Of a stretch of DNA of 64,000 nucleotides, positions 13,944 through 51,323 are shown one piece after another. The notes under the pieces were generated by a model. The model was not told the origin of the DNA. It did no database searches and worked only from the letters and a program-made list of their open reading frames with translations. The position numbers and the translations under genes are program-made. The stretch lies in the IMG/VR virus record IMGVR_UViG_3300024581_003792, positions 32,001 through 96,000 of that record. One strand, 5' to 3'. How positions within the stretch are numbered: position 1 is the stretch's first letter; each line of letters starts with the position of its first letter. Origin of the DNA: a virus.

Positions 13944-16900
13944 CTAGTCAATCTCTATAACGTCATCATCCAAATTATCTAGCATAGAGATATCTTTTTC
14001 TGGATCTAAATCATTGAAGTCGGCATTAAAAGCAGAAACATCTGCATTATAGTGTGATAATTTTTTAATCTCAGCAATTAATCTACCGTTTTCATCAGTG
14101 CATTTTGATTCCATCATAAATTTATCTTTTCTTTCTCCAACAACCATCCAGGAAACAGTCGTAGGGCTATTTGATTCATTCTCAAGTTCAATGTACAGAA
14201 TATTACCAACAACCTTGCTTTTAACATTATTAAATGATGATTCATTAGAGGAAAAAGTTTGTATATTAGTACATAATGCTTCAAAAGTTCCACTTGTCAT
14301 TAAGAAATAATCATCTAGATTGACTTGATGGGTTTGTCCACTGAAAGAAACAGATCCTCGGTATATTAAATCAGCCTGTGGAGACTCGATGGAAGCATGC
14401 CTTAAATAATAATTTTTCGACAACTCAGCCAATGGATGGTCAATTTTAAACTGCTTATCTTGAGCGCTTAATGTGTCGTTTATATAAACACCATCATCCG
14501 AAACAGATAGTATCTTTTTTCCAAAACGGACTAAATGAAGGGCTGCGTCACTATCTTTATATAAACCTGTATTCCTGTCAGAAGCAAAACTGTATTGAGG
14601 TTCAATCTTTACTTCCCAGCTATCAATTCCATTTAAACTTGTAGAAATTAAACCCGATTCACCAAATACCATGTACTTTTCAGTATCTTTATGGTATGTA
14701 ACATCAGATTGAAGTATTAAGCCTGTAGTAGCTCCATCTAATTGAACAAAATCGTCTTTCTTTAAATTTCTATTAGATATAATCTGCTGTAAATCAGCAA
14801 AAGTTATGACAAAAATTTTCTTTTTTGCCCTGTCTATTGCATATACGTTTTCATTGAGACGCTTAAAAGAAAAATAAGCGAAGTACCAGGTGTCATCAAC
14901 TACATCTTCAAGAGGCTCAATATATCTAACATTTTTAAATCCAGAAACTTTTTGCGAATCTATAGTGTGTTCGCAGGATTCGATTATATAGTATCTAGTG
15001 GCATCTAGATATTGATATATTCGCTGCTGGTTGACTGTTAATTTCCTCTTTCCTATAGCGAAAAAACCATCTCCCAGTAAAAAACATGCCTGCGATTGCT
15101 GCAACATTCCTTGATATTCCGTAGTGTTTTCTTTAGTATTATCTGTAAAACAAGCGGTTGGCATAGCGTCGCCATTTATATCCTTTGGTCCATTACTATC
15201 CCAAGTTCCACCGACTCTTTCTATGGCGGTTTTTAAGTTTAAATATGAACCTCCAAATCCATAATCATTTCTATAGCATTTATTTAAGACATCTTCATCA
15301 TCATAAAGATCGTCAGGTATAAGATCTATATGAGTTAACCTGAAATCACCTATAGTTGGACGCAAATACTGACAAGGAGACAAAACAGGGTAACCTGGAC
15401 CATCTATTTGAAATATACCATGCCTTCTGTTTATATATGTAGTGAAAGTAGCGGCATCGTGGTCTTCTAATCTTAAGCCGCCATTCAGGAAAAAATGCAT
15501 ATCCTTAGTATTCCCTCTGGGCCAGTTAGTTAATTGATATCCTAACACACGACTAGTTGTCCAGTCTGAGTATCCGTGATTTCTTGCAAATAATCTCTTA
15601 AATAGATAATCTTGAGAAGAAGAATCTCTTGCTACTAAAATTAAGTGATAGCAATTCATTGTTTTTCCGTTTAGTTCTTCAGTATTGTATGGATCAATGC
15701 TCAAGTCTTGCATCATAGTATCGATATCATTACCGAACATATCTGGAGATATCCTAATTCTTACTCCTGTAGCATTAGCTTCAGTAGAAAAACCTGAAAG
15801 ATTTTGAATGTATGAAGCATCTAATGTAAGAATTTTTGTCATATCACTTAATTGTCCTGGGTATCCTTGTCCTCCTTGCGCACCATACCCACCAGTCACT
15901 CCATTTAAATTTAATGCATAAATTTCGAAAGTTGCATTTTGAAAATTTAAAAATGATCCTTCATCAAAAGCAGTAAAATAAATTGTATGTGTATTTGCAT
16001 AAAAAGTTCCGACTGGCATAATATATCCAGGGGTTTTGTATTCATCATAAAATCTAGCCAGATATTCCATAGAATCAATTAAGGTATATGATATTTCGTC
16101 ATTTGTACCTACATATCTCGTGCTAGAATCATTGTTGTAAGCACTACCCACTCCAGAATAATTTAAAGCAGTTTTAGATGCATCTGAAAAAGCGTCTTGA
16201 TAAAATCGAACTGTATTCATTTGAAGGCTGTCAGCTTCTATAGAATCTGTAGATATAGTAGAGTTATCAGAGCTAATATAGACTTCACATGCATGTCTTC
16301 GTTGGCCTGGGGCGCCTGGATAGTTCCGTCCTATTGCAGAGACTAATTGTTTTACTGAAAGAGTATTGCCGCTTGACTGTGAAATAATATCTTCACCTTT
16401 TTCAAACGATTGTATACAAAAAAACGGGTAATGATAGTCAGATCGTTTTCGGTCATTAAGATATCTATATCGATCATTGTTCACATCTCTAGTATAAGGA
16501 ACGTAACTTGCTAACCACCTAGATTCACCTGATGAATTTTTAGCCTGTACTACAGCCAGACCTCCCGAAGAGTGAGGATAGGTTCTGAAATTATGAAAAT
16601 AGGAGTTGTCATAAACTGGTTCAAATATACTTAATGAGAAATCTCCAACATTTTCACCTGCATTGTTGGTTCTTTTTATTGAACTACTGGAAACTTTCGC
16701 ATTGTTTGCAGGTCCACCATTTAATTTACTCGTAGCAATGTCAAACAATATATCCCTTGTCCGGTATCTGTTAAGAGTCTTTCCGTCAGTGTTTTCTACA
16801 TGAAGATAACTATTTCCATGAGTTGAACTGTACCAATTATATAGTTCAATAACCTTGCGTTCATTATTATGCGAGAAAGGATGAGAAAAAGAACCCTTAT

Positions 16901-19900
16901 GGGAATAAGATCCAGTTATATGATTTACATGCATGTGAGGGGTTCTGTATCTCACAGATGTATTAGAATCAGTTAAGCTACCGATACCTGACACTGCAGT
17001 ATATTCACCAGACGAATTAATTAGTATACTAGAACTAGACCATTGACGGCTACCTAAATCGCTAACAAATCTAGCAATTACGTTATTGTTTACTTGGAAT
17101 TCATATAAGTCAACGAATGCTGAAACAGCTAAACCGTTAGCTATGGTTGTAGACCAAATTTTAGATGCTGATTCGTATTCTGTTACGGCTAAATTTTTAG
17201 CAGTCGCTTTGCCTTGAGGCATAACATTAATATGGTAACCGTTTGAGCCTGTAACAAAACTTAAAGTTCTTGCACGATAATCTTCTTGGGGGTGTTGACT
17301 TAATGATGCATCTACTTCTGTTGAGTTCACTATTACTTTATTTCTGTATTCAGTTGTAGTATCTGCAATCATATCTCTTTTCATATCTTGAGCTTCTTTG
17401 ACAGTAATGATCGTAGAAAGATAATCTGTATTTTTATGATCATTATATAACTCAAGTATTTTATCTCCGTAACTTTCTACGTTAAACAAGTAGTGGTAAC
17501 CTTTACTGTCTGTCAGTAGAGCTTGAGAATCGCTATATTTAGTTGCATGGGTGAGGGTGTTAGCGGATCTCCCACTAACAAAATCAAAAGGATTGCTTGC
17601 AAATTCATCAGAGACACCAGAATATCGCCTTTTGCTTGATGTCCATCTCACCCAAGGAAACAAGAGTGTATACCAGATGCTCGCATAATATTCATCACCT
17701 GCAAAATCACCAAGTAAGAATTTAGGCCCTTTAAAATGATTAAAATCAGGATAACTTCCATCAGGCAAAAACATCTCTACAGGACAAGTAAAACCTGATC
17801 TCATTATATACTTATTATTTGAAAATAAGTCACTAGTGCTATAAATATATTCATCAGGGTGCCTACTCAATGTATTTGCAATTCTGTAAACTATAGATTC
17901 GCTATATCCATTTGGAATTTTTCCTTCTGCATAATCAGCTGTGGGATAATAATCATAATGCAAGCTTTTCCACTGTGTGTCATTGGCCAATTGGTAAGTA
18001 CTGGGCCCATAAAAAGTTCCCACCAATGAAAACTGAATGTTATTGTCTTCAATGAATTGAGCTGTGATTGATTGGCCAGAGTTCAAACGATTATCTAACG
18101 CCCTGTAGCCTCTCATAATTAAAGAGCCTCTGAATCCCAACCAAGGACTTACTGGGCCATACCTGTGATCATAGTGGGCAACCCTCGGGGTCATGGATAT
18201 AGCCATGAAGTCTAAATCATAATTATAGTAGGTGCTCATATCATATGAGTGGGCATAACTCCCAGTTGGTTTAGAAATATACATTAACTCTGCACCTTCT
18301 TCTGTTGCCCAATTGGGAAGATGAAAAGGAATCATATCTAATTCCTCTCCTGTAATATTTGCTGCATTAGCTCCACCAAATGTATGAAAATTAATGAATG
18401 CATCATTGCCTTCTACATCTGTAGATGTTATGTCTCCTTGACCCAAAATTATCGCCTTAAAGCGTCTGGAAGCTTCTTTATCAGTAGTACCGTTTTCAGA
18501 ATCAGCTAAAGCTTTTATCGTTATTCTCATATTGCTCCAGCTACTACTAGTTATACCTCCGATGTGACTAACATTACGAAAAGGATTACCGGTATTAGAA
18601 CTAGTATAATTCGTATACTTGTTGCCAGTATCACTTATAGCTAAACCACCCAACCCTGTCGAGGATGAACTAGTGTTAAAGCCGGCATAGGGATCCCCGC
18701 CAAGATAACTCCAACTTGGTATAAAATTACTTTTCACCCAAGTGTCCCCATTATCATCAGAATACATTCCTGGACCAGTACCCTCTGGATGCAACAACAC
18801 CGAAGAGCTAAATTCTATAGTTCCTGGTATAGCAGCAGCATCCATTTTGGCAAAAAGCCTTTTTCTACTATTTGGTAATTTAAAAATACCAAGAGCTACA
18901 ATCTTGGAATTAATTCCTGAGGTTTTTTTTCTAGTAAATGAAAAACCATCAAGCGTAGTGCTTATTGATCCAGCATTATCTATAATATAAATTTCATCAT
19001 CATTTATAAACTTGTAAACACCAAATGGCCTGCCTTGGTCTGCTGGTGTTAATTGAGATTCTCCTAGGTATGATATTGCTCCAGCTGAATACTCAACTTT
19101 TTGAGTAACAATCATGTTAGAGGCCTCTACTGCCTCTATTTTTGCAGTTGATTGTACTTCTAAATTATGAAAATTTCCATTAGCCCAGGCATTTGTAGAT
19201 GTGCCCACATTTCCAGTATTATCCTCTTCAGGAGAAAATCCGTTTGTCATATCAACAGCCGGAGCAATTTGCCATCCTTCCCACCATAAATTACCACCTT
19301 TATTGTATAATTTATTTGCTAGGGATGAGGGTGCGTCTGTTTGAACAGCTAGAGTGATGTAAGGATCAAAAGATGCTCCTGCTTTGAAATTAGATACATT
19401 ATTAAAAGAAATAGTTCCATCTGATTCTAATTTTATTCTGGTTTCTCCGTTTTGAGTAAATGCTACGGGATCATCGTCACCAGTACCACCGCCAAAACCA
19501 ATACCTCCACCCGGAGCAGGAGTTGAAACTAAAACTTTCTGGTTGTTTACAAAAACATCATCAGTAAATCTGCCAATTTTGGCTCTAATTTCTCCATCGT
19601 CACTTATTAGATTTTTTTCAATTTTTACATCATTATTTGAATCAATTATGATTGCATCTTCTGACTCTCTCTGTATATGAACTTCTCTTGTGTCATCTAC
19701 CTCTACTGCGCCAAGATAAACAATGTCATTATCGCCGGATGCTACTAATCCTCCGTCTGGAGTAGGACTTCTGAACCCCGTAATCACAGGATTTCCGCTG
19801 ACTTGTAATCCTTCGCTAAAATCAGCAAATACTGCTCCTCCTGAAACAACTTGCTCGTAGGTTACTTTGCGAGTAACCCTATCGTGTCCTTCTCCTGTAT

Positions 19901-19982
19901 TTAAAGCGCTAGGAAGAAAATTACCGCTTGAGATGTCTCCGCCAGTTGCGGGAATAAGGTTTCGAATCTTGATGTTAGGCAT
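13944..19982 (-). CDS. large tail fibre/spike-like protein (2012 aa)
   Basis: N-terminal IKIRNL...TRKVT fibre-type motif; Asp-boxes YSDDNGDTW and TSLNGIDSW; C-terminal FKIDHPL...LRHASIESP...YRG module common at ends of phage fibres. Confidence 0.65.
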   Translation of the reverse strand: MPNIKIRNLIPATGGDISSGNFLPSALNTGEGHDRVTRKVTYEQVVSGGAVFADFSEGLQVSGNPVITGFRSPTPDGGLVASGDNDIVYLGAVEVDDTREVHIQRESEDAIIIDSNNDVKIEKNLISDDGEIRAKIGRFTDDVFVNNQKVLVSTPAPGGGIGFGGGTGDDDPVAFTQNGETRIKLESDGTISFNNVSNFKAGASFDPYITLAVQTDAPSSLANKLYNKGGNLWWEGWQIAPAVDMTNGFSPEEDNTGNVGTSTNAWANGNFHNLEVQSTAKIEAVEASNMIVTQKVEYSAGAISYLGESQLTPADQGRPFGVYKFINDDEIYIIDNAGSISTTLDGFSFTRKKTSGINSKIVALGIFKLPNSRKRLFAKMDAAAIPGTIEFSSSVLLHPEGTGPGMYSDDNGDTWVKSNFIPSWSYLGGDPYAGFNTSSSSTGLGGLAISDTGNKYTNYTSSNTGNPFRNVSHIGGITSSSWSNMRITIKALADSENGTTDKEASRRFKAIILGQGDITSTDVEGNDAFINFHTFGGANAANITGEELDMIPFHLPNWATEEGAELMYISKPTGSYAHSYDMSTYYNYDLDFMAISMTPRVAHYDHRYGPVSPWLGFRGSLIMRGYRALDNRLNSGQSITAQFIEDNNIQFSLVGTFYGPSTYQLANDTQWKSLHYDYYPTADYAEGKIPNGYSESIVYRIANTLSRHPDEYIYSTSDLFSNNKYIMRSGFTCPVEMFLPDGSYPDFNHFKGPKFLLGDFAGDEYYASIWYTLLFPWVRWTSSKRRYSGVSDEFASNPFDFVSGRSANTLTHATKYSDSQALLTDSKGYHYLFNVESYGDKILELYNDHKNTDYLSTIITVKEAQDMKRDMIADTTTEYRNKVIVNSTEVDASLSQHPQEDYRARTLSFVTGSNGYHINVMPQGKATAKNLAVTEYESASKIWSTTIANGLAVSAFVDLYEFQVNNNVIARFVSDLGSRQWSSSSILINSSGEYTAVSGIGSLTDSNTSVRYRTPHMHVNHITGSYSHKGSFSHPFSHNNERKVIELYNWYSSTHGNSYLHVENTDGKTLNRYRTRDILFDIATSKLNGGPANNAKVSSSSIKRTNNAGENVGDFSLSIFEPVYDNSYFHNFRTYPHSSGGLAVVQAKNSSGESRWLASYVPYTRDVNNDRYRYLNDRKRSDYHYPFFCIQSFEKGEDIISQSSGNTLSVKQLVSAIGRNYPGAPGQRRHACEVYISSDNSTISTDSIEADSLQMNTVRFYQDAFSDASKTALNYSGVGSAYNNDSSTRYVGTNDEISYTLIDSMEYLARFYDEYKTPGYIMPVGTFYANTHTIYFTAFDEGSFLNFQNATFEIYALNLNGVTGGYGAQGGQGYPGQLSDMTKILTLDASYIQNLSGFSTEANATGVRIRISPDMFGNDIDTMMQDLSIDPYNTEELNGKTMNCYHLILVARDSSSQDYLFKRLFARNHGYSDWTTSRVLGYQLTNWPRGNTKDMHFFLNGGLRLEDHDAATFTTYINRRHGIFQIDGPGYPVLSPCQYLRPTIGDFRLTHIDLIPDDLYDDEDVLNKCYRNDYGFGGSYLNLKTAIERVGGTWDSNGPKDINGDAMPTACFTDNTKENTTEYQGMLQQSQACFLLGDGFFAIGKRKLTVNQQRIYQYLDATRYYIIESCEHTIDSQKVSGFKNVRYIEPLEDVVDDTWYFAYFSFKRLNENVYAIDRAKKKIFVITFADLQQIISNRNLKKDDFVQLDGATTGLILQSDVTYHKDTEKYMVFGESGLISTSLNGIDSWEVKIEPQYSFASDRNTGLYKDSDAALHLVRFGKKILSVSDDGVYINDTLSAQDKQFKIDHPLAELSKNYYLRHASIESPQADLIYRGSVSFSGQTHQVNLDDYFLMTSGTFEALCTNIQTFSSNESSFNNVKSKVVGNILYIELENESNSPTTVSWMVVGERKDKFMMESKCTDENGRLIAEIKKLSHYNADVSAFNADFNDLDPEKDISMLDNLDDDVIEID

Positions 19983-20002: not shown

Positions 20003-20980
20003 TCATTGTCCGCTCATATCCATCAAGTCTTTCATTGATAAAGTTCCCTTTTTCTTGGCAATGTCTGTCAAACTTTGACCTACAGGCTCCATTCCTAGTT
20101 CTGATAAATCTTCTTTTGTTGCGCCGACCACGGTTGATCCTGCGGAATTTTTATTCTCAAACTGTTTTTTCATTTTTTCACGGGATTCTGAAGAATTTGC
20201 AAAATCCAACAAGGCAGATGGATCTTTTTTTATTCTATCTGGAATGTTTTCATTTGTTTCAAAAATATTTTTAAAAATCCTAGTATACAATATTAAGTTT
20301 AATTGAAAGTTTGTTAGTTCGAGTATCGGTTTCCCGAAAAAGTCTATCGAGTTTTCGGAAAAGTGGTAGTAGACTTTGTAGAAATCTTGGATGGCTAGAT
20401 GCTGGATATTCTCTTCCCCAAAATTAGCATGAAACTTATTGTAAATAGAAACTAAATCAGAAACTTCTTTTGTGCTGGCGTACTCAAATTCTTCTTGAGT
20501 ATATAACCTGGTCTTTAGGTCTTCATCTTGATAAAAACTGTTGAATATATAAAAATCATTTGCTCGGTTTAAAGCATAACGATCCGCACTATTCTGTATT
20601 AAGCTTTGCTTCTTTGTTTTTAATTCTTCAAGATTTTTCTTTGCTTCTTCTATTTGTTTATTGATTTGATCCATTGCACTTTTAAGCACAATGTTCTTTT
20701 TGTTTTTTATTAAATTTTCAACGTAAAAAGATTGAGACTCTATTTCGGATTCGTCTTTATCTGACCATTCGCCTTCTTCTTTTAAGTTTTCAAATATTTC
20801 TTCTTCAGTGGGTAAGCCTTTAGATATGGCCCGATTTAAATACATTTCGTAAACATCATCAAAATCAACCAAATCGTCGGTTGATTGATGCTTAATGAAA
20901 CGTTTTTTTTCTCCTATATAAAAACCTGAGTATCCGTCAGATATTTCTTTGAGTAGTTTTCTGTATTTTTTTGAATCCAC
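20003..20980 (-). CDS. hypothetical protein (possible tail assembly chaperone)
   Basis: 325-aa helical, acidic ORF with GTG start; function inferred only from context. Confidence 0.4.
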   Translation of the reverse strand: MDSKKYRKLLKEISDGYSGFYIGEKKRFIKHQSTDDLVDFDDVYEMYLNRAISKGLPTEEEIFENLKEEGEWSDKDESEIESQSFYVENLIKNKKNIVLKSAMDQINKQIEEAKKNLEELKTKKQSLIQNSADRYALNRANDFYIFNSFYQDEDLKTRLYTQEEFEYASTKEVSDLVSIYNKFHANFGEENIQHLAIQDFYKVYYHFSENSIDFFGKPILELTNFQLNLILYTRIFKNIFETNENIPDRIKKDPSALLDFANSSESREKMKKQFENKNSAGSTVVGATKEDLSELGMEPVGQSLTDIAKKKGTLSMKDLMDMSGQ

Positions 20981-20983
20981 CCA

Positions 20984-21748
20984 TTATAAATTCCCTTCTT
21001 CGAGATCTTTTTCTAGATTCTCAAAATCTTCTTGGGATGGGTTTTGGCTGAAATACCAAAAACTGACAAATGTCATGAGTTTTTCTTTTGCTAAATCAAA
21101 AACAGGATCACCTTTCTCATCCATGATATAATAAGAATCTTGCTTTTGTTCGTCGTTTTCTCCTTCAAACAGCGGAACAATAGATCCTTCGCCAGATTTA
21201 ACGTAACATAAATTAAGCATATACCAAAGGATCGTTTTATTCTGAGCTTTTGTATCAGCTGTATGATTAAAAACATTTTGATATGCTGTCTCAAGGTCAA
21301 CTATCGATCTTCTAAGTTCAGCAAAATTCTCAGTAAGATCTGCTTGTTTTTTGACGTCTTCGTCTGACTTATTTTTCCTGTTATTGAGTCTAGTTAGAGA
21401 CTCTTGCGTCTCGGAAAGTTCTCTGTATAATCTCATTAAAGAATTAGAGTCCTCTTCTGTTAATAATCCTCCACTATCGCTGTATTTTTTTGCCATCATC
21501 GCTTTAGTTAGGATGCCGCGCTTGATGCATTTGCTCATTTCGACACTAAACTCCATGTCTGCATCTTCTATTTGTCTTCTTGATGGTTCGTAGATGATGA
21601 CTTCGTGAGGAATTTCTTCTGATACTGTTTCAACTTTTTCGACCTTTTTAGTCTCTCCGGACTCTGGGTCTTTTTCTTCAACAGTAGATTTTTTCTCTAC
21701 TTCGCTTTTAGTTGTAACTGTAAACTTGTAAATAATTTTTTTGTTCAT
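20984..21748 (-). CDS. hypothetical protein (possible tail assembly chaperone)
   Basis: 254-aa ORF with coiled coil; AGGTATAAGG upstream. Confidence 0.4.
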   Translation of the reverse strand: MNKKIIYKFTVTTKSEVEKKSTVEEKDPESGETKKVEKVETVSEEIPHEVIIYEPSRRQIEDADMEFSVEMSKCIKRGILTKAMMAKKYSDSGGLLTEEDSNSLMRLYRELSETQESLTRLNNRKNKSDEDVKKQADLTENFAELRRSIVDLETAYQNVFNHTADTKAQNKTILWYMLNLCYVKSGEGSIVPLFEGENDEQKQDSYYIMDEKGDPVFDLAKEKLMTFVSFWYFSQNPSQEDFENLEKDLEEGNL

Positions 21749-27986: not shown

Positions 27987-30900
27987 ATGGCAGGTATTAG
28001 GGCAGACGTAAATTTAAGCGTTAACACGTCAAATGTTAAACGTAGCCTTGATCGTGCAACAAACGAAATCAATAAAGTTGTTAACGGAATTAGCGGTAAG
28101 CAGGTTTCTTTTAATGTAAATCAGAAAAGCTTTACGCAACCTCTTGGTAGGATTACTCAATCTGCTAATGAGTTCACTAAATCACTTGAGGCTTCAAATG
28201 CTCGGGTTATTGCCTTTGGACTATCTGTATCCATAATCAATGGCATTAGTGATGCCTTTAGGAGTTTAGTAGTAGAGGCAGTCAGGTTTGAAAAAACAAT
28301 GGCCGACATTAATGCTGTCATGGGTATGTCAAACGAAGGTTTAGCTGAATTTGGTGAAGGTCTTTTTGATGTAGCGCAAGCAACTGCTCAATCTTTTAAT
28401 GTTGCTGCCGAAGCAGCTTTGGAATTTTCAAGACAAGGCCTTGAAACTGAAGAAGTTTTGAGAAGAACTAATGACGCCTTAATACTAACAAGATTAACCA
28501 GCTTAGATGCCGCTGATGCGGTATCTGGATTAACTGCAGCAGTAAATGCATTTGGTAAAGCAGGATTGACTACCACTGATATTATTGATAAACTTGCTGC
28601 CGTAGATGTTGCCTTTGCTGTCAGCTCTGAAGACTTAATTAATGCCCTGCAAAGATCTGGCGCTGTAGCTATAGACGCTGGGGTTGAGCTTGACAGTTTG
28701 ATTGGTATAGTAGCCGCCCTACAGCAAACTACAGCCAGAGGTGGGGCTGTAATTGGTAATAGTTTAAAAACTATCTTCACAAGAATTCAGAGGCCGGAAT
28801 CTATCAGGCAAATAGAAGATCTTGGTATAGTTGTTAGAGATTTAAGTGGCGCAATTCTTCCCGCCGATAAAATCTTATTAAATATGGCCAAAAGCTTTGA
28901 TGGTCTGACGCAAGCTCAACAATCAAATGTGGTTCAGTTTTCCGCAGGTATATTTCAGGCAAACGTTTTTCGTGCTGCTTTGGCAGATTTAGCTAAAGAT
29001 CAAAGCCTGCAAGCGAAAGCTACCGAAATTTCATCAAAAGCCTCTGGAGAGGCCGCCAAAAAAAATGAACTTTTAAATAAAACCATCTCGGCTCTTGCTT
29101 CTCAAACTGGCACTAAAATTCAAGAATTGGCTGCGGTGCTTGGAGAAATGTCTCTTGGCCCAGGAATCGGAAGCGCATTAGAGTTTTTGAGCGAACGATT
29201 AGATGAAATAAGAGGTATCCTTGGCGGAGGAGAAGAGGAAGGTAGTACTTTTGCCAAAGGATTAGTTCGTGGAATAGGAAATATAATTACAGGTCCAGGC
29301 GCCATAGCATTTGGAGCAATTTTTATAAAAATGTTTATGAACATTGCCAAGTTTGCTCAAACATCAATGAAGGATGTTCTTGGTGTGGTGAGCCAAAAAG
29401 ACAAAATAAGAAACATGGAAGAGGCAATTCTTCAAGCTTTATCCAAAAACGTACATATTCAGCAATCCTTGAACAACCTAGAGGGTGATCGACTGGCTCA
29501 GGAAAAATTTATGCTTGGAATAATAGAGGCTCAAACCCAGGCGATGAAAGAGCAGCAAATGCTTGCGAGAAGTTTAGCTGGACCACTTGTTCAGAAAGGT
29601 GTCAGCCCTACTATGATAGGAGCATCATCGGGCGTTGTACCAGAAGCAGCCAAAAAGCAGGAAAGACGTGGAGCGATACAAGGAGGATATTCTCCCGGAG
29701 CCATCGATTCAATGCAGGTTGCCGGGCTTGGTAAGGTTATATACAATAAAGCCGAAACTGTAAAGCAGTTTCCAGGTATGAAGCAGCCAGCAATCATGCC
29801 GCCAGAAAGAAGTAAGGCGGGTACTGTATATCAAAAATCTTTCAAAGAAAGGCATGGCTTTGATCCCTATGCTAGCCACGGCTTTGTGCCCAACTTTGCT
29901 ATGAAAAGAGGGGCTACCCTGGTGATGGATAAAGCTAAATTAAAAATATTTGGCACCGATGTTGACATAGGAAAAGCAGTTAATAAAAAATACCAAGAAA
30001 TTCAAGATCATTTTCAAACAAAGACGCCAATTAATATAGAAGCTGGACTAAACCAAATCATTACTTCTTCCAGTAAGCAGAAGAAAGAAAGTACGGGCAA
30101 AGAATCTTTGTTTGAAAGTTTCGAGGGTTTATCTGAGGCGGGTATACGATCCATCGAGAGGCCTTTTGATGTAAGAAATATTGGCGCCGCTAAATCAAGA
30201 AGTAAAAAACCTAAAAAAATAACAAACGCAGAGTTTGCAGAAAAAAAGGTTATGGGTCTTCTTAATAGGGAGCAAAGCGTTGACAAGGTGGACAAAAAAG
30301 AAAGTTACCGACTTACTCATGATCCTGAAACAAACAGGGGCACCCCCGATTACCCTGTAGACATTATCTCATATGGTCAAAATTATCCAACTTATGAAGT
30401 TAAGAGCGGCAGCTTTGATCCAGCAAATCTTATATCTAAAAGTCTTCGTATGGCTTCTGATCGAGAGTTGCCAAACTGGATGCAACAAAATAAAATAAGC
30501 GGCGGCAAAAAACTACAAGAAAGAAAACTTAAAAAAGCCGAAACCTTGTCAAAGAAATTAGATTTATATGACCCCAAGCAAAAGAAAAGCGCCAAAGAAG
30601 AGGGGTTTGAATTTAGTCAAGATTTTGCTGACGAATGGGGATTAAGTCAAGGGTTTATTCCTAACTTTGTGGCAAAACATCACATTGATCAAGGTTTTGT
30701 AGAAAAATATACAAGCGTAAGAAATAATTTAGGCGAAAGGTTCAAAGATAAGCAAGAATTCTTAGAATACTTTAAAACACAAGCAAAAAACGTAGTACAA
30801 AAACTAAAGAATAACCTAGAGTTAAGCTCTGACCCAAATAAGAAAGAAAAGCAAAAAATCGCAGGTATCAATGAGGAAGACTTCGAGAAAGCGACTTCAT

Positions 30901-33900: not shown

Positions 33901-36900
33901 AAACACCAGAAGATATTGTCGGTATTATTCAAAATTTTGTTAAATCTCATGTTAGCGGCGAATTGTCAGGGCAAAGACATAACCCTAATTCCGCCAAGAG
34001 GGCATCAGGAGCCGTTTCTTTTTCAACAAGTAAAACGATAGCTAGAGAATTTTCCGGGCTAGGTACGATCAGGAGAAAAGCCACCAATCCAGATGGCAAA
34101 GTCTTTGAGAAAGAAGTTCCCCAGAAGAATATATTTAGCAAGCAAAAATTACTTAAAATTTTGAGTAAAGGCGCCGACATCGAGAATAATGTTTATCCGA
34201 AAGTACAAGAGTTTAAGCAAGCAATTTCCTCCGGAGCGATACAGAAATGGGCCCAAGAAAACGGTGGAATTTTCTTGAATGTTTCAGGTACATATAATGA
34301 CCAAGAAGCTTACGGAAAAATGGGCAAGGTAGAATATGGAAGATTTGAGCATAAATTTTTAGGCAAAAGAATGCCTGCAATTGTTCCTCCAAAAGAAATT
34401 GGTTTCAATAAAAACAAAACATTTCAAATCAGCCCAAGAGAAGAGGAAGTGATGCAGGTATTTGGTGATGGCCTTGTACCCAACTTTGCAGACCCTCAAA
34501 AGATTCGAAATGGTGCAATATATCACAGTCAAACTAACAACAAAGCTGTTAGAGTTGTTCGAGCAAATCAAGCCGAAAGAATAGCGTATATAAAGCATCA
34601 TACTCAGGATCACATGTTTGACCCCGAAGTTCCGTTTTCCGATCTAATTCCTGCATCTAAAAAACAGGTTCAAGAGTATCTTGGCAGGAAGTCCAAAAAC
34701 AAAGCGAAAGGCTTGATTCCTAATTTTGCTAACCCTCTTCAGGATGCAGTTAATCGCGAGAGAGCTGCAGGCATACCTCAATCAAGAATAAGGATAGAAA
34801 AAAGCAGTCAATTGAAAAGCCCAAAGAATCCCATGGGTCTAGCTGTTACAAATACACGCGATGAACCAGCCGGATTACAGCAAGGAATTAGGCGCGCAAA
34901 AAGCATGGGTATTGACCCAAAATCTCATGGAGCCTCAAAAGGATTAGTGCCAAATTTTGCCGGAAATAAAGGTCAAGCAAAACAAGAAGGCGGACTAATG
35001 CAGCTTTTTGTTTTTCAGTCCTTATTAAGTACGGCAAATGGATTTTTGCAAGAATTTGCTGAAAACGGAAGTCAGGCAGCTAAAATGTTTTCTGAGGCAG
35101 GTCAAGCCGCTTCCAGTATGGCTTCAGTCTTTTTAACTACAAAAGAAATAGGCAGCCAATTGACCGAAGGCATGGGGATTGATCCTGGCAAAACAATAAA
35201 CCTGCGCGATTTATTCTCAGAATCAGGAAGAAGAAAAGCTAAAGCTGGTACAGGAAGGTTTACACAGGGTTTAAAGGCTGCCGCAAAAGATGGCTTTGGT
35301 CAGGCTGGGTCAAAAGGAATACTGCAAGGCGTTAAGGCTTTCTCTGGGGGAATAGCTTCAGCTGGCAAGATGTTGTTGAGATTTACCCCAATGATTGGTA
35401 GCCTTATAAGTCTTGGAACGGCTGCCAATGAAATTTTTAAATTGTTCAATGATGGAAAAGGCATTATGTCTTTATTTGAAAGCGCTTCAGAAAAAGCGGC
35501 TAGAAATTTAGAGAAATTATCGAAATCGACAGAAGCTCTTGAATCTGCTCTTGGTGCGTTGCAAAATAAAACAGAGGTTTCAACAAAAATTGAAGAACTC
35601 GAGTTACTGGGTTCTATGCGTACCCAAAAACAAGAGACTGAATTGTTTCAATTAAAAATGAAAGAGCTCGACATTCAGTCAAAAGTTCAGAAGTCTATGT
35701 CTCAATTATTTCAGGAAAATGTAACAGGAACAGTTATTGCATCTAAGCTCAGCAATCAATTCACTCAAAGCGGAATTACCGTAGACGAACAGACAGAGAC
35801 CCTTAAAAAATTAATCTTGGTACAAAAACAAAGAATTGCGATTGAAGAGGGCACAAAAGCATTTGGGGATTTGATAGAAAAAAGATTTGATAAATTTACA
35901 AGTAGTTTTGATTTTAGCTCTATAACCGGACAAGACGCTGAATTTCTTAAGCAAGCTTCCTCTTTCAGGGGAGCTCAAGCAGGCATGGCTCTTGGTGGAG
36001 TGATGGCTGGATCTGAAGATTTAGACCCAAAAGAAAGACTACGGATACTGGAAGAAAATATAGGGGTCATAGGAAAACTTGACCTGAATAAAATAAGCAA
36101 AAGCTCAGCTGACGGTATCACGGATTTCTTATCGGAAAAACTAAAAGGAACGGAAGACTTTGGCGGTTCATTAATAGCTGCACATATAGGAGATATTCTT
36201 GATACAATTGATGATGCTGAAGATAATATGGTTGGCTTTGAAAAAATAGAAGCAGCAGCTGCCAAGAATGCACTTGATGCTTTTATTAATCAACTTAAAA
36301 AACAAAAAGACTTGCTCGAAAAGGATGGTGTTGCCCAAACATTAGCTCAAAGCACTGCACAAGTCAAGGAAGAATATTTAAAGATTATTCGTAGCATTAA
36401 GGATGAAAGAAAGCAAAGGCTTCATAGGCAGGATCTCGAAAATAGCATCAGCGCCACACAAAGAAAAATAGCTGAATCTCAAATCTCTTTACTTGATGAA
36501 CATCAGGCAATTTCCAAGTCTACTTTAATCAGAAAAGAATCCTCTAGGAAAATAGAAGAGATATCTGAGAAATTTTCAACAGATATTTTAAAAGCCAACA
36601 ATGCATCTCTTGGCGCTATGCAGTCAGTGTCAGAAGAGTTTATTAAGACCGACCAGCTCGCCCAGCAATTTAGAAAAGGCGCTGGCGTTACAATGGCAGA
36701 TGCTGTTGAAAACCTTAAAAAGAGTGTTGGGCAGAATCTTACATCTTTAGATTTATCTGGTATAGAAAATGCAATCGGAGAAGCAATATCACCTGCTGAC
36801 GCGCAATCATTAAGAAATTCATTTGCTTCAGTATCTTCGAGGATTGCTCACCTGGATGATAATGGAAAAATAATTAATGAGTTCATGAGGGAGTATGGCT

Positions 36901-39900: not shown

Positions 39901-41369
39901 AGGATAGAGTCAAAGAACTAGTCCGGGGCGGCGAATTACAATATTTCAATAACGGTACAAGCGGGGAAGGTGCACAACCTAAAAAAAGCAGACTACAGGC
40001 CGGAATGGAAGGTGTTGCAAGAACTGTAGTAATGTCAGAGGTCAGTCGAAGAATTGGAGAATCAATCAATAAAAAACAAGATAAGCCGCCGACTTTTGAC
40101 ATGAAAAGATTAGAGAGACTTAATCTTGGATCTGATGTGAGTCTTAAGAGCGGTGACCCCAGGCTTAGTGGTAAAGCTTTAGCTACAGACCCAGTCATGG
40201 AAGACTATAAAGAATTTCTACTGGACAAAGCCGCATATAATGCGCAAAAGAAAAACGAAAAATTTAATAAAAGACTTCAGACCTTAGGAACAATCCTTGG
40301 TGCTGCCACTAGCTTCATGATGTCTGAGGTTACGAATATCCTTAAAGAACCTGTGCAGAAATTAGTGCAAGGAGTATCTAATAAAACTGGTGAGATTTTC
40401 GGGAAGTACGGCAATCAGTATACACAGGCAAAAGCCGAAGCTAAATTCAGAGGTCAAGACTTAAATTATTCTGATTTCAAGAAATCAATGTCTGTGTTTG
40501 AAAAATCTGGGAATAAAGGTTTTTATCAAGGCCCACAAGGTAATCTTTTTTATATGTCTCAAGACAATGCTGGAGATTATGCAACGTTCAATCTAAATCG
40601 ATTGTCTGACATTCAAGATATGGGTCCAGCGGAGCAGGCAAAAGTTCTAAATCTTTACAATACAACAAAGGTAAGAACTCAAGCTATGAGGCAATTTGCA
40701 TCAAACAATCAAATGGATGCAAAAGCAGAAATATTTAAAGCTAATGGAGGTAAGATACCAGCAATGCTAACTGCAGGAGAGGCAGTAATACCTTCTTCTA
40801 TTGCTCAAAGAATTGGATACGATAACCTCAATAAAATGAATACAACTGGCCAAATTCCAGTAGTAAAAGGCAAGGGTGGGATAGATAATGTAGGACCAGT
40901 TGGATTAAACGAAGGTGATTTCGTTATAAGAAAAAGCTCTACCGAAAAGCTTTTAAGGGAAAATCCTAGAATGATGCGCTTCGCCATACAAAACCCAGAA
41001 GGATTTAAGCGGGGCGAACAAGGTTATTACCAGGGAGGTATAGTAGGTACAACTCCTTCTACTGCAAGCGCACCATCAGTCACTTCACCTAGGGCCAGCA
41101 AGGCTGCTGCTAGCCCAGTCAATAACATGCAGCCATTGCTTCAAGCTGCTCAATCTCAAAATTCTCAACAAAATAATCAGACCACAAACAATGAGGTCAC
41201 TAACAACATTAATGTGAATGTTACGGTAGATAGAACGGGCAATGAAAGGGTAAGCGCAGACACATCAGAGGGATCATACGAGCAAGAGCAACAGCTAGCT
41301 GTAAAAATAAAATCAAAAGTTCTTGAGGTCATACGAGAGGAGAAGAGGATAGGTGGAGAACTTAGCTGA
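27987..41369 (+). CDS. tape measure protein (4460 aa) with internal motif-delimited cassette array
   Basis: TP901-type TMP core at N-terminus (IDKLAAVD..., IGNSLKTIFTRI); long coiled coils; C-terminal FAEGG..G..D.VPAMLT.GE.V motifs; position before tail tip genes. Confidence 0.9.
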   Translation: MAGIRADVNLSVNTSNVKRSLDRATNEINKVVNGISGKQVSFNVNQKSFTQPLGRITQSANEFTKSLEASNARVIAFGLSVSIINGISDAFRSLVVEAVRFEKTMADINAVMGMSNEGLAEFGEGLFDVAQATAQSFNVAAEAALEFSRQGLETEEVLRRTNDALILTRLTSLDAADAVSGLTAAVNAFGKAGLTTTDIIDKLAAVDVAFAVSSEDLINALQRSGAVAIDAGVELDSLIGIVAALQQTTARGGAVIGNSLKTIFTRIQRPESIRQIEDLGIVVRDLSGAILPADKILLNMAKSFDGLTQAQQSNVVQFSAGIFQANVFRAALADLAKDQSLQAKATEISSKASGEAAKKNELLNKTISALASQTGTKIQELAAVLGEMSLGPGIGSALEFLSERLDEIRGILGGGEEEGSTFAKGLVRGIGNIITGPGAIAFGAIFIKMFMNIAKFAQTSMKDVLGVVSQKDKIRNMEEAILQALSKNVHIQQSLNNLEGDRLAQEKFMLGIIEAQTQAMKEQQMLARSLAGPLVQKGVSPTMIGASSGVVPEAAKKQERRGAIQGGYSPGAIDSMQVAGLGKVIYNKAETVKQFPGMKQPAIMPPERSKAGTVYQKSFKERHGFDPYASHGFVPNFAMKRGATLVMDKAKLKIFGTDVDIGKAVNKKYQEIQDHFQTKTPINIEAGLNQIITSSSKQKKESTGKESLFESFEGLSEAGIRSIERPFDVRNIGAAKSRSKKPKKITNAEFAEKKVMGLLNREQSVDKVDKKESYRLTHDPETNRGTPDYPVDIISYGQNYPTYEVKSGSFDPANLISKSLRMASDRELPNWMQQNKISGGKKLQERKLKKAETLSKKLDLYDPKQKKSAKEEGFEFSQDFADEWGLSQGFIPNFVAKHHIDQGFVEKYTSVRNNLGERFKDKQEFLEYFKTQAKNVVQKLKNNLELSSDPNKKEKQKIAGINEEDFEKATSFYNTLPLAKTRKSIDKLLANKDLFVNINKAQAKEDVNQLGIRSVGDFYRKTDFGQQATFDKTLTTIKNIGYQQEVDLAKDALDKVRSLTESKKAAVSKTRLKGDLFEKAISILAGQPFKKGKDALDFSRAQDRPVLMDPEIREQIDLGEDVIYGDAESGSGHKLHLMRDKVIRELEEGGELYSLIQGEGDINLPGETFTDIVANGSDAKPKDSSSIKLDDLLTSSRTSSGTKKAIEKSLTKKYEGKITPAQRKKEYQRNVKFDYYVDDVNLENLKVDRRTRLGKELGNIDRQFLAVTSQTNSDGLVPNFASFMSPLRFDIGDEKSNGKSYVARTAKSGKLFLLDRGLNPFREYMESQGKPTPVMSQGRVGKRDGYWVNQYESDILEWAKQPNPQILERDINEKKAREESLEHFRQDLKHGTFKPLEAGYPLQLGGGELVRYSPESGFGKTIVDKMGPEYKHISVNAKKIQDYARDNNITKKFNFGPAPDYAKALNTMLRLPKADIEKLDFIRPREKSENEKKKELRDSSPKSPIKWDVKQDMVTKKKSYAIKASDDTFSYFKKFLKTKGVPQRSIQNIDKALQGKSERLEEIKRTAIEKSQSRSGNQMFYDAAVQSDNFLKSFSIPTKDLYIKDLSNLIKEFNSTVYKEFNSGLIADYSPVEMNKGYVPNFIGFNVPKKSHQLIETFNQITEKNKLIPTVNSLMEQGVDRETAIQQTKDDQFGQKKSMFKILNKMKSEGVKQLFFGQGGKIFPHQSAGTIPFTIDKIKDIINGTGYKTNLKSDGFVPNYAVTLSDDKYYNEKSVKHGISQLYKKSGGRQKLTPQDLEFASERYISAIKDSGKTYPGGNFNVGGKKFNFNEVSMALMKHGQFYQPKEGEAVDMSEGFAEGLIPNYAAKIRNGAIYHSKTNNKAVRVKRADQAERIAYIKHHTQDHMFDPEVPFSDLTPATKKQVQEYLGRSPTKAKGFVPNFADTTLYRGQGRPTLDTPDILSNLPSFSGAETPEDIVGIIQNFVKSHVSGELSGQRHNPNSAKRASGAVSFSTSKTIAREFSGLGTIRRKATNPDGKVFEKEVPQKNIFSKQKLLKILSKGADIENNVYPKVQEFKQAISSGAIQKWAQENGGIFLNVSGTYNDQEAYGKMGKVEYGRFEHKFLGKRMPAIVPPKEIGFNKNKTFQISPREEEVMQVFGDGLVPNFADPQKIRNGAIYHSQTNNKAVRVVRANQAERIAYIKHHTQDHMFDPEVPFSDLIPASKKQVQEYLGRKSKNKAKGLIPNFANPLQDAVNRERAAGIPQSRIRIEKSSQLKSPKNPMGLAVTNTRDEPAGLQQGIRRAKSMGIDPKSHGASKGLVPNFAGNKGQAKQEGGLMQLFVFQSLLSTANGFLQEFAENGSQAAKMFSEAGQAASSMASVFLTTKEIGSQLTEGMGIDPGKTINLRDLFSESGRRKAKAGTGRFTQGLKAAAKDGFGQAGSKGILQGVKAFSGGIASAGKMLLRFTPMIGSLISLGTAANEIFKLFNDGKGIMSLFESASEKAARNLEKLSKSTEALESALGALQNKTEVSTKIEELELLGSMRTQKQETELFQLKMKELDIQSKVQKSMSQLFQENVTGTVIASKLSNQFTQSGITVDEQTETLKKLILVQKQRIAIEEGTKAFGDLIEKRFDKFTSSFDFSSITGQDAEFLKQASSFRGAQAGMALGGVMAGSEDLDPKERLRILEENIGVIGKLDLNKISKSSADGITDFLSEKLKGTEDFGGSLIAAHIGDILDTIDDAEDNMVGFEKIEAAAAKNALDAFINQLKKQKDLLEKDGVAQTLAQSTAQVKEEYLKIIRSIKDERKQRLHRQDLENSISATQRKIAESQISLLDEHQAISKSTLIRKESSRKIEEISEKFSTDILKANNASLGAMQSVSEEFIKTDQLAQQFRKGAGVTMADAVENLKKSVGQNLTSLDLSGIENAIGEAISPADAQSLRNSFASVSSRIAHLDDNGKIINEFMREYGSITEGTVAAAFMAALNQKEIMQLTQKQKNLLTDSINDLKRANQIAETQRKNALSILKEDETLKLIRAKTVDGARALKDKLSGINIPELSIKSNQGETATLSVLNDARRGQVKALMDSRALDDKAYQLQIEKNRTEAESSVLSLRQLQSQEAILRSTQTQSEDYKNIIRIQQAKFESELSNSYLTKRETVAREDFLKIDSKRYKLVNEQLETEMSNARTTARLNLEKLKLTSITETLEEIAATQIKEELTSTQSSSLIASEKSLQLIKNQEISEQLFRASQLQEKSNQLDELRLAARKASMSQQEFDQQADTEVAIERANAISAARLNIAKLKRLSIQEELNKQVQIELTEEITSAQRSALIASEKAIILSEMGEQGRLLRQANELQESANKLQTLENSIRKAGMSEKQLRLNTEVDVATQRADAIAGTRGAAMRAQITGSPEDALAFAQSLKETNKSLGNGTRAFDQLRIKMAELNVSAADLGSDLVDIGIDGARTGLKQLFKDIGSGAKSAKEAWSDFSLGLAEQLLDRVMEDNIDKIIKDLTYAFTGEDGSSDAEKIAGSNSHLISAIGSLEGVFKSQGTHTKDLQQELQKGIRLNAPTMDSKLLGMAEFDKSIANLKTQVDALAGVVSLDVSNRKNESREQTKDSQDLTDLNPNGTTSKLIENETLMQQQTARGRGRAANQVLADSGYNPDAIHTLPSGISHHRNPKLRKLEQAQTESLKNIRHFESKISDLNMTPERREAFNKLNIQPDKKAGAKRVDKQRQSIAEGIEFTFREGIDQTIQSDKQHNISNIEELQKNFKIGTDPKARPNLATRSMVPEMGEVSYFKGEGDPKDPGNWGELNIPEFMKIKEQSTLEIQNFLGVTENLAKVYKDVAINADAAKDSMANNAKQHDEYSIKLKNEQQNYENITLAISSTNQELSSFSSVISKTKQNLDTFNNKLATSKNTQPQPVIENPKAGLNQSGGIIQKFAEGGFVKGPAGIDRVPAMLTAGEYVIPKDRVKELVRGGELQYFNNGTSGEGAQPKKSRLQAGMEGVARTVVMSEVSRRIGESINKKQDKPPTFDMKRLERLNLGSDVSLKSGDPRLSGKALATDPVMEDYKEFLLDKAAYNAQKKNEKFNKRLQTLGTILGAATSFMMSEVTNILKEPVQKLVQGVSNKTGEIFGKYGNQYTQAKAEAKFRGQDLNYSDFKKSMSVFEKSGNKGFYQGPQGNLFYMSQDNAGDYATFNLNRLSDIQDMGPAEQAKVLNLYNTTKVRTQAMRQFASNNQMDAKAEIFKANGGKIPAMLTAGEAVIPSSIAQRIGYDNLNKMNTTGQIPVVKGKGGIDNVGPVGLNEGDFVIRKSSTEKLLRENPRMMRFAIQNPEGFKRGEQGYYQGGIVGTTPSTASAPSVTSPRASKAAASPVNNMQPLLQAAQSQNSQQNNQTTNNEVTNNINVNVTVDRTGNERVSADTSEGSYEQEQQLAVKIKSKVLEVIREEKRIGGELS
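29880..34961 (+). repeat. ten G-[FLY]-[VI]-P-N-[FY]-[AVI] peptide repeats within the TMP
   Basis: Gly codons at 29880, 30651, 31809, 32895, 33249, 33564, 33795, 34470, 34710, 34941. Confidence 0.92.
33588..34688 (+). repeat. duplicated 63-aa domain (33588-33776 and 34500-34688)
   Basis: KIRNGAIYHS...QEYLGR, 58/63 aa identical. Confidence 0.95.
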
Positions 41370-50285: not shown

Positions 50286-51323
50286 ATGAGAGATACCAAA
50301 GCATTTAATAAAGAAATCTTACAGATAGAACCTTCTACTGTTATCTGTTTATATAAAATTAACTTACGAGATCGGGGTCAGTATCTATTTCATGCTGGAG
50401 AAAATGGATATAAAAATAGAATCATATTCAATGGCGAAAAATATGATTTTATGCCAATTAAGGTAGAAGGTTTTGACATTCACGGTGACGGAAAACTACC
50501 TAGACCGAAGATGACTTTTTCAAATCATCAAGGTAATATATCTTTGCGCTTAGGAATATTTAAAGACTTTATAAATTATAAGGTTTCAAGAATTAAAACA
50601 TTTGCAAAATATTTAGATCAAGAAAATTTTCCTAATAATATTAATCCTCATGGAGACTCTAATCCTGATGTTTCATTTACAGAAGATGTATTTTTTGTTA
50701 ATGAAAAAATCGCCGAGAATGATCAGATTGTTGAGTTTGAATTAGTATCGCTATTGGAGCTGCAAAATGCAAGTATACCGTCTCGGACTATGTATTCTAA
50801 TTATTGCTCATGGCAGTATAGGAGTAATATAGGTTGCGGGTACAGGGGTAAACCTATATCCGATGGAAAGAATAAGAGATTCGTGTCCAGTGGATACCAC
50901 GGACAAATGGTTGGTCAGGAAACTTATTTCGGTCAAGATTATGACAATATTGAATTTGCTAAAAAAAGACCAGAAGATGATCAGTATGAGATTTGGGCAA
51001 GAACAGGAAGATATAATAAGGGTGACGTAGTTAGAGTTGAGGCATATGATGACGATAAAGATATTTATCCAGTAAATATATATGTATGTCTTTCTGACAA
51101 CGTGAGATCAAATCCGGCTCTCGATAGGGAGAAATGGGTGCTTGATGATTGCGACAAAACTTTATGCGGATGTAGATTAAGGTTCGGAGAAAATGCAACT
51201 GGAGCGGGTGGTGGATCTAGAATGAACGCGCAAGATTTAGAGCAAGACATGCTTTGGACTGAAAGTGGCAATGGATTACCTTACGGAGGGTTTCCCGGTA
51301 TTGACCCTTATGAGTTTAAATAG
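50286..51323 (+). CDS. lambda gpL-like minor tail protein
   Basis: PIKVEGF..GKLPRP, TFAKYLD..NF, CSWQYR..CGY, CDK...C.LRF, LPYGGFPG. Confidence 0.9.
   Translation: MRDTKAFNKEILQIEPSTVICLYKINLRDRGQYLFHAGENGYKNRIIFNGEKYDFMPIKVEGFDIHGDGKLPRPKMTFSNHQGNISLRLGIFKDFINYKVSRIKTFAKYLDQENFPNNINPHGDSNPDVSFTEDVFFVNEKIAENDQIVEFELVSLLELQNASIPSRTMYSNYCSWQYRSNIGCGYRGKPISDGKNKRFVSSGYHGQMVGQETYFGQDYDNIEFAKKRPEDDQYEIWARTGRYNKGDVVRVEAYDDDKDIYPVNIYVCLSDNVRSNPALDREKWVLDDCDKTLCGCRLRFGENATGAGGGSRMNAQDLEQDMLWTESGNGLPYGGFPGIDPYEFK

Follow-up and report, generated by a model that had tools for sequence, protein, structure and literature searches.

The tape measure protein (TMP) of phages fills the lumen of the tail and leaves it ahead of the DNA during infection. 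Here we describe a giant TMP in which ten copies of a short peptide motif delimit nine cassettes, encoded in a 64,000-nucleotide stretch of viral DNA (positions 32,001 to 96,000 of IMG/VR record IMGVR_UViG_3300024581_003792; hereafter the window). The window is part of one 213,830-bp genome, all of which was covered by our whole-genome scans. The only TMPs known to be cut are those of T5 and lambda, by a catalyst that is unknown and, in lambda, at a site that is unmapped (2025 paper, PMC12617516). In T5, pb2 matures into pb2* and pb2C: the chain is cut after R1127 while the tail is being assembled, with a hydrophobic stretch on one side and an enzyme domain on the other, and the pb2C fragment remains in the tail; its later expulsion and refolding have been proposed (Linares et al. 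2023, PMC10038345). Lambda gpH matures into gpH* and gpHC. T5 pb2 and lambda gpH offer the likeness of a TMP cut in a linker after its hydrophobic stretch during tail morphogenesis. Each of them, however, has a single cut, and the single C-terminal fragment that this yields is a peptidoglycan hydrolase in T5 and no known enzyme in lambda, whereas the window TMP has ten candidate sites in its N-terminal half and nine unrelated modules, none of them wall-hydrolase-like.

Other described systems share further features with this protein. In the Sle1-type effectors of actinobacterial contractile injection systems, a TMP-derived carrier in a tail-like tube bears an exchangeable domain (Nagakubo et al. 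2026, PMC13277306). These effectors differ in having a single C-terminal functional domain and in belonging to a bacterial nanomachine, and no repeated delimiter motif is mentioned in the abstract and outline (PMC13277306). The polyvalent proteins combine many unrelated conflict-type domains (ADP-ribosyltransferase (ART), ParB-like and other nucleases, methylase) in a mosaic manner, and their delivery with the DNA, followed by separation, has been proposed (PMC5512222). They are packaged in the head (DarA/DdrB, MuF-linked), their processing has been ascribed to an embedded Zincin-like MPTase, and the paper makes no mention of TMPs (Iyer et al. 2017, PMC5512222). The TMP family described here also joins unrelated domains in one polypeptide (ART, SNase, ParB_N, nuclease, kinase and methylase across the family), but its carrier is a tail TMP and not a head protein, no peptidase was found in it, and a fixed peptide stands at every junction. 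Finally, polymorphic toxins use a short conserved peptide as an exchange point (VENN in CdiA, a DPxGL-type boundary in Rhs), and the Rhs boundary is also cleaved; they have one variable tip per protein and a paired immunity gene, and they act in bacterial competition. An earlier reading of this DNA, made without database searches (the sequence-only reading), had likened the cassettes to those of polymorphic toxins, which is apt for the evolutionary pattern of domain exchange at a short peptide. The window array, in contrast, is a serial one within a structural protein of a phage, and we saw no immunity genes. No relevant paper came up when the literature was searched for the motif strings, and we found none that describes this architecture, a variant of two known kinds, TMP-borne enzymes and polyvalent injected proteins.

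The motif and the cassettes of the window protein

The TMP gene (P0001; 27987..41369, + strand, as are all features below unless stated) is a single open reading frame (ORF) of 4,460 amino acids (aa). Its assignment in the sequence-only reading is confirmed by a PF10145 (PhageMin_Tail, TP901-family TMP) domain at aa 130-316 (28374..28934; 3e-26, 93 bits against a Pfam cut-off of 33.2), by more than 10 TMP PHROGs that match the first 640 aa (phrog_4211 at 3.5e-51) and by lambda-like M/L/K/J genes downstream. A hydrophobic segment follows at aa 429-457 (29271..29357; Kyte-Doolittle mean 1.6-1.7 over 19 aa), and it was found at the equivalent place in all eight relatives checked.

A regular expression search of the translated ORF with G[FLY][VI]PN[FY][AVI] returned, residue for residue and with the spacings previously reported, ten copies between 29880 and 34961: GFVPNFA at aa 632 (29880..29900), GFIPNFV at aa 889 (30651..30671), GLVPNFA at aa 1275 (31809..31829), GYVPNFI at aa 1637 (32895..32915), GFVPNYA at aa 1755 (33249..33269), GLIPNYA at aa 1860 (33564..33584), GFVPNFA at aa 1937 (33795..33815), GLVPNFA at aa 2162 (34470..34490), GLIPNFA at aa 2242 (34710..34730) and GLVPNFA at aa 2319 (34941..34961). 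They are spaced by 257, 386, 362, 118, 105, 77, 225, 80 and 77 aa. The maximum motif count in 2,000 shuffles of the TMP sequence was 0, and a six-frame scan found no further copy elsewhere in the window. With a looser pattern, applied to the whole genome in six frames, there was a single extra match, SLIPNY at window position 52597, in a gpJ-like gene.

The motif is also conserved far beyond this protein. The 916 copies present in 121 TMPs have the consensus (A)-S-x-G-[LF]-[VI]-P-N-[FY]-A, with G, P and N each at 98% or more, and the motif is nearly invariant across TMPs down to about 25% identity. It is hydrophobic, and the residue preceding it is often basic or small. At the DNA level, Gly is encoded in the ten window copies by all four of its codons, Pro by three, and Asn and Phe by both of theirs, and the flanks of the copies are unrelated, so that homogenisation of the DNA is not the cause of the conservation. 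The codon usage indicates that selection acts on the motif as a peptide and that something reads this peptide. The earlier suggestion that the motif is a recombination junction describes where exchanges survive, but it fails to explain the conservation of a peptide written with so many synonymous codons. In two cassettes modelled with AlphaFold2 (AF2), the motif residues at both ends have a predicted local distance difference test (pLDDT) score of 27-65, which places the motif in flexible linkers between cassettes.

The nine window cassettes belong to eight families, numbered here as in the clustering described below. Cassette 1 (family 1, aa 639-888, 29901..30650) is globular in its AF2 model and has an invariant D-ExK signature in the family alignment, resembling PD-(D/E)xK. 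Cassette 2 (family 3, aa 896-1274, 30672..31808) belongs to a family of 33 members, and cassette 3 (family 10, aa 1282-1636, 31830..32894) to one of 14 members, in whose alignment 29 columns are invariant. Cassette 4 (family 27, aa 1644-1754, 32916..33248) is restricted to the five closest relatives, the window counted, and the family of cassette 5 (family 6, aa 1762-1859, 33270..33563) has 24 members with 14 different left neighbours. Cassettes 6 and 8 are two copies of a small conserved module, family 11 (copy a, aa 1867-1936, 33585..33794; copy b, aa 2169-2241, 34491..34709), with 74% amino-acid and 75% nucleotide identity to each other. Between them lies cassette 7 (family 5, aa 1944-2161, 33816..34469), which alignment, AF2 modelling and fold searches point to as an ART-like domain. 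The array is closed by cassette 9 (family 0, aa 2249-2318, 34731..34940), a highly conserved terminal module. Family-11 copies of about 70 aa thus stand on both sides of the ART cassette, and the module was likewise seen as tandem or flanking copies in P0003, P0021 and P0063.

The sequence-only reading had described the cassettes as Lys-rich and globular-looking between helical flanks. The array contains 12.0% K, 4.7% P and 3.2% Y against 5.1-8.6% K, 1.2-1.3% P and 0-0.8% Y in the flanks, and two cassettes were modelled as mixed alpha/beta (pLDDT 79 and 87.5), which upholds the first two attributes; for the helical flanks the evidence is compositional only. Two degenerate copies had been proposed as well. 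SGVVPEA (aa 548-554) is a real decayed copy: the heptapeptide GVVPEAA (aa 549-555, 29631..29651) occupies the site at which 33 relatives have G[FL][IV]PN[FY] before the same 83-aa module. On the other hand, SGLIADY (aa ~1622) falls inside cassette 3, where no sign of a decayed site was found. The module that follows the decayed copy (family 4, GGYSPGA..., aa 556-631, 29652..29879) has 50-64% identity to the family-4 cassettes of relatives, and we take it, on this similarity, as a conserved core part of the TMP and not as variable cargo.

Cassette turnover and predicted functions

A word-indexed search with aa 600-2400 returned 161 proteins of 2,461-5,756 aa that covered 5-67% of the query, nearly all of them with PF10145 and many on contigs of about 200 kb. 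All of the 120 metagenomic giant TMP relatives that were retrieved carry the motif, in 3-18 copies each; the first copy is found near aa 540-650, and the position of the last one varies, up to about aa 2,700 or farther. An exhaustive HMMER search with aa 1270-2330 against 1.84 billion representatives (clusters at 50% identity) matched 802 TMP clusters; among the best matches listed for these, most are to the last cassette, and the motif is present in 127 of 129 new representatives. No match was found by tblastn with aa 600-2400 and with the last cassette against 50,697 GenBank phage records, a set from which entries close to the window's own genome may have been masked, and no cultured relative was found. 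In a scan of genome contigs, the last cassette matched four contigs of metagenome-assembled genomes (MAGs) only (lineages Cellvibrionales, Neomarinimicrobiota, Flavobacteriaceae and Crocinitomicaceae); these look like binned phage contigs, so that we name no host.

The 121 proteins were cut at the motif, and the 795 pieces were clustered by blastp with a mutual coverage of at least 60%. The resulting 151 families include 85 singletons, and they occur in 107 different orders. The window has the order 1-3-10-27-6-11-5-11-0, and those of its closest relatives include 1-3-10-27-15-6-11-12-9-0 and 1-18-10-27-15-6-0. To its left the ART family has 22 different neighbours, and to its right 16. The number, identity and order of cassettes therefore vary between conserved junctions, as the sequence-only reading had expected, which is the opposite of an invariant collinear region. 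Not all families are equally mobile. Family 1 is present in 89 of the 121 TMPs and is usually first, and family 0 is last in 95 of its 103 occurrences, with a mean column identity of 62% and 21 of 84 columns invariant; this conservation suggests that family 0 is probably a core part of the TMP instead of cargo. By hhalign, families 1 and 5 are unrelated to the other families tested, except that the N-terminus of family 1 resembles that of family 3, the two having in common an N-terminal subdomain of about 70 aa (97.8%).

The boundaries of exchange coincide with the motif. In comparisons with relatives having 70-88% identity in shared cassettes, alignment blocks mostly begin or end 2-17 aa from a motif, and the few that stop within a cassette do so at plain sequence divergence. 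The clearest case is that of L007, the closest relative at the DNA level, which aligns to the window at 79% identity from aa 1069 until the aa 2242-2248 motif is reached; at that point L007 carries one cassette more than the window, and the two sequences match again from two codons ahead of the next motif. The two sequences differ there by a clean one-cassette indel with the motif at the end of both flanks. A 2023 survey found a sequence signal of TMP mosaicism, but confirmed no genuine recent case (PMC10684548), and this indel is a recent case of the kind sought there. Taken together, the alignments show that whole cassettes are gained, lost and exchanged at the motif as the array evolves. 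We also observed that L007, an ENA scaffold, has a run of N inside the TMP gene at about 900..1000, and this scaffolding gap is the reason why its protein P0003 looks N-terminally truncated and without PF10145; such gaps may inflate the number of 'short' TMPs in databases.

The enzyme motifs that had been noticed in some cassettes are best borne out in cassette 7. In an alignment of 30 family-5 sequences at 24-59% identity, R13, G14, S71, E216 and E218 are invariant and S75 is nearly so. The AF2 model of aa 1944-2161 (pLDDT 79, predicted template modelling score 0.80) is a compact alpha/beta domain in which the R, S-x-S and E-x-E residues lie on or next to strands 8-15, 74-77 and 218-223. A VIA fold search, which is independent of Foldseek and covered about 48,000 PDB representatives, returned ARTs in nearly all of its 50 rows (TreX, Z 6.3, root-mean-square deviation 2.9 with 101 residues aligned; TccC3, 5.1; pertussis S1, 4.8; Scabin, 4.7), and the top Foldseek rows were ARTs too. 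We accept cassette 7 as having, in its model, an ART fold of the R-S-E (cholera/pertussis-like) type with intact catalytic residues. A search for free-standing homologues of 119-382 aa found a single 136-aa fragment, and no relatives were detected outside TMPs. T4 Alt is a separate, head-packaged ART protein that is injected from the virion (cited in PMC7824862 and PMC9503650). Cassette 7 is like Alt an R-S-E type ART that a virion would deliver, but it is built into the TMP and has no detected sequence relatives elsewhere.

Cassette 1 is a nuclease-like candidate. An alignment of 56 family-1 sequences has D161, E173, K175, K187, S188 and R190 invariant, and the AF2 model of aa 639-888 (pLDDT 87.5) is a compact alpha/beta domain with ExK on strand 171-174, a pattern that resembles PD-(D/E)xK enzymes. 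The VIA matches were weak (FAN1, Z 3.3; R.BspD6I, 2.4; TT1808, 2.2), and Foldseek found no clear fold for the model in PDB and BFVD. At the level of profiles, Pfam and PHROGs returned nothing above threshold for each cassette of the window TMP, the ART cassette included, and searches with profiles of families 5, 1, 0 and 10 matched nothing among PDB sequences. A wider scan took one representative from each of 136 cassette families through Pfam, PHROGs and NCBIfam. Pfam recognised SNase (in two families), ParB_N, PGDYG, a nucleotidyltransferase-type domain and a few marginal matches; PHROGs added endonuclease, nuclease, ParB-like, polynucleotide kinase, cytidyltransferase and DNA methyltransferase, and NCBIfam added nothing useful. 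About 90% of the cassette families match no known family in the libraries searched.

Candidate maturation sites and the role of the motif

The array is followed by a Pro-poor region rich in A, L, Q and E (aa 2326-3941, 34962..39809; P 1.2%), which from its composition is presumed to be the length-determining, helical ruler part of the protein. It includes a tandem duplication of about 106 aa (37533..38174; aa 3183-3291 against 3288-3396, 42% identity, E 4e-20), and tandem duplication is the usual way in which TMPs change length; Tandem Repeats Finder detected no DNA tandem repeats in the TMP gene. Directly after this region lies QKF-AEGGFVKGPAGIDRVPAMLTAGEYV (aa 3942-3969, 39810..39893), whose residues 3945-3969 (AEGGFVKGPAG...GEYV) resemble the start of T5 pb2C (AEGGMMYPG...GEHG) and residues 733-762 of lambda gpH (ATGGF...GEFV). 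Modules of the form G-G...P-A-M-L-T-A-G-E-[YA]-V recur in the C-terminal part (39810..40787), at aa 3945-3969 and aa 4253-4267 and, in a weaker form, near aa 4300, and at least one such module is present in 117 of 121 relatives. By this likeness, the bond between F3944 and A3945 is a candidate C-terminal maturation site. A cut at the corresponding position of lambda gpH would leave 12.5 kDa, close to the reported ~14 kDa.

The T5 cut site reads NANSFVPR/AEGG (the slash marks the cut), and [GSA][FLY][VI]P occurs once in the 1,219 aa of pb2, exactly there. The T5 site and the window motif have a [GS]-[FL]-[VI]-P core in common. The likenesses between T5, lambda and the window are at the level of patterns that were chosen post hoc.

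We give an even chance to the reading that the motif is a maturation cleavage signal, and that the cassettes are kept in pieces in the lumen of the tail until they are expelled at infection. In this protein, nine independently folding cassettes are flanked by the N-terminal TMP domain, with its hydrophobic segment, on one side and by the long C-terminal ruler on the other. According to this reading, the motif would be cut as T5 pb2 is at SFVPR/A, which would turn the array into separate pieces inside the assembled tail. Because a TMP fills the lumen and exits before the DNA, these pieces would be kept in the tail and then released into the envelope or the cytoplasm of the infected host, where nucleic acids and proteins of the host would be their targets, in the manner of the head-packaged polyvalent proteins and T4 Alt. 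It seems doubtful, though worth stating, that the motif could be a general TMP maturation code, shared with the SFVPR/A of T5 pb2 and perhaps with lambda gpH, which has here been multiplied into a lumen magazine of separately released, exchangeable enzymes. On this doubtful reading, a cut within the motif would create new N-termini with Leu, Phe or Tyr, residues that are destabilising in bacteria according to the N-end rule, so that the delivered enzymes could have a built-in limit to their lifetime.

Several points weigh against cleavage and delivery. Cleavage itself, a binding partner, presence in the virion and delivery are all things that we infer. The likeness between the motif and the T5 site amounts to four residues, was picked post hoc and is ambiguous in register, and BLASTP of T5 pb2 against the C-terminal 561 aa of the TMP gave no significant similarity. 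Each chain would bring about 1,700 aa of globular sequence into a lumen of ~4 nm that holds at least three chains, so that the cassettes must be unfolded or in single file, and, within the TMP, the array belongs to the head-proximal half, a long way from the tail tip. A peptidase domain was recognised in none of the 136 cassette representatives, although about 90% of them match nothing and a hidden one is possible, and the same proportion of families has no recognisable function. As for the two cassettes with enzyme-like signatures, the fold scores of the ART cassette are modest (Z 6.3; Foldseek E ~0.5) with no Pfam ART model matched, and the fold assignment of cassette 1 is weak (Z of at most 3.3). 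The gpK-like protein (Prok-JAB + NlpC/P60, domains found by Pfam as in lambda gpK; 51265..52035) is the sole recognisable peptidase-type protein found in the tail module. We considered it as the protease of the motif and set it aside, because its place of action, the tail tip, is about 2,100 residues away from the array, and because T5 is not known to have a gpK-like protein although its TMP is cut.

The conserved peptide could also be read without being cut. It is possible, if on the unlikely side, that the motif is a handling or docking signal bound by a tail assembly chaperone, by the tube lumen or by a host chaperone, which would keep the cargo unfolded or in register; the cassettes would then remain attached to the TMP inserted in the membrane and work where the phage enters. 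The position of the motif in disordered linkers, its hydrophobic character after a basic or small residue and its confinement to the TMP are consistent with such a role, as are the failure to find a peptidase in the arrays, the location of the array after a conserved hydrophobic segment and a conserved gene pair (20003..21748, - strand in the window) whose homologues stand directly upstream of the TMP gene in relatives, where chaperones would be placed. However, no partner has been identified, and a motif that is near-invariant in TMPs of ~25% identity, while tail proteins diverge, is more easily explained by an enzyme pocket or a highly conserved partner than by a structural contact that co-evolves; moreover, the most similar peptide of T5 is a cleavage site. 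We find it rather improbable that the cassettes are structural or assembly modules of a very long tail (lumen fillers, length modifiers or plugs) and that their enzyme signatures are relics. A structural role would suit the lack of a known function in most cassette families, the nearly universal occurrence and fixed position of the first and last modules (families 1, 4 and 0) and the weak correlation of array length with the length of the C-terminal part (r = 0.34). It is difficult to reconcile with such a role that R/S/ExE is invariant across ART cassettes at 24-59% identity and D-ExK in 56 family-1 cassettes, that the recognisable families are nucleic-acid enzymes, and that unrelated folds turn over fast between close relatives, which is typical of conflict genes.

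The remaining explanations concern the motif alone, and we consider both very improbable. If it were a linker without any biochemical role, made uniform through DNA-level homogenisation or left as a recombination scar, breakpoints would coincide with it, as in fact they do; but the ten copies differ at most synonymous positions and have unrelated flanks, G, P and N are kept at 98% or more in 916 copies from proteins down to ~25% identity, and a degenerate sequence of 21 nt is poorly suited to homologous recombination. Alternatively, the motif could cut itself by cyclisation of Asn, between the N and the F of P-N-F, once the TMP is confined in the tube, in the way known from tetravirus and nodavirus capsids and from FlhB/YscU. 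In accordance with this, the Asn is invariant and follows Pro, the catalyst of T5 and lambda TMP cleavage is itself unknown (PMC12617516), and T5, when aligned on F-V-P, is cut after the residue that follows Pro. Nevertheless, that residue is Arg in T5, and the known cases need a folded catalytic context, whereas the motif lies here in low-confidence linkers.

The tail module and the meaning of the array

On the 3' side of the TMP gene there are genes with Phage_min_tail (gpM-like), Phage_tail_L, Prok-JAB+NlpC/P60 (gpK-like) and Phage-tail_3 (gpJ-like) domains, the Phage_min_tail match being slightly below the Pfam cut-off (37.9 against 39 bits). The gpK-like ORF overlaps the 3' end of the gpL-like gene by 59 nt. 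The order of the tail genes is retained in L001, a metagenomic relative of ~200 kb, with the TMP gene flanked by conserved tail genes and the M/L/K/J-like genes. This is the gene content of a lambda-like tail tip module and suggests a long non-contractile tail; neither a sheath gene nor a tube gene was identified in the tail module of this genome. The gene pair at 20003..21748 (- strand) consists of two ORFs, of 254 and 325 aa, in one frame and separated by a stop codon and one codon. Its homologues are directly upstream of the TMP gene and on the same strand in L002, L004 and L006, and the pair is inverted in the window and in L001. Tail assembly chaperone genes are usually placed directly upstream of the TMP gene, and these two ORFs may be a G/GT-like chaperone pair joined by read-through instead of a frameshift. 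Between the head and tail modules there is also an ORF of 2,012 aa (13944..19982, - strand) with no Pfam match, and its similarity to L001 is short and N-terminal only.

If cleavage and delivery are correct, the tail would be a second route, besides the head, by which ready-made proteins enter the cell, with a plug-in design in which the fixed peptide allows cargo to be exchanged while the ruler is left undisturbed. Moreover, a conserved candidate site that is repeated ten-fold in one protein bears on the way in which the T5 and lambda TMPs are cleaved (PMC12617516). Finally, the family is large (802 clusters match part of the array) and entirely uncultured, and it constitutes a bounded source of candidate host-takeover and counter-defence enzymes.

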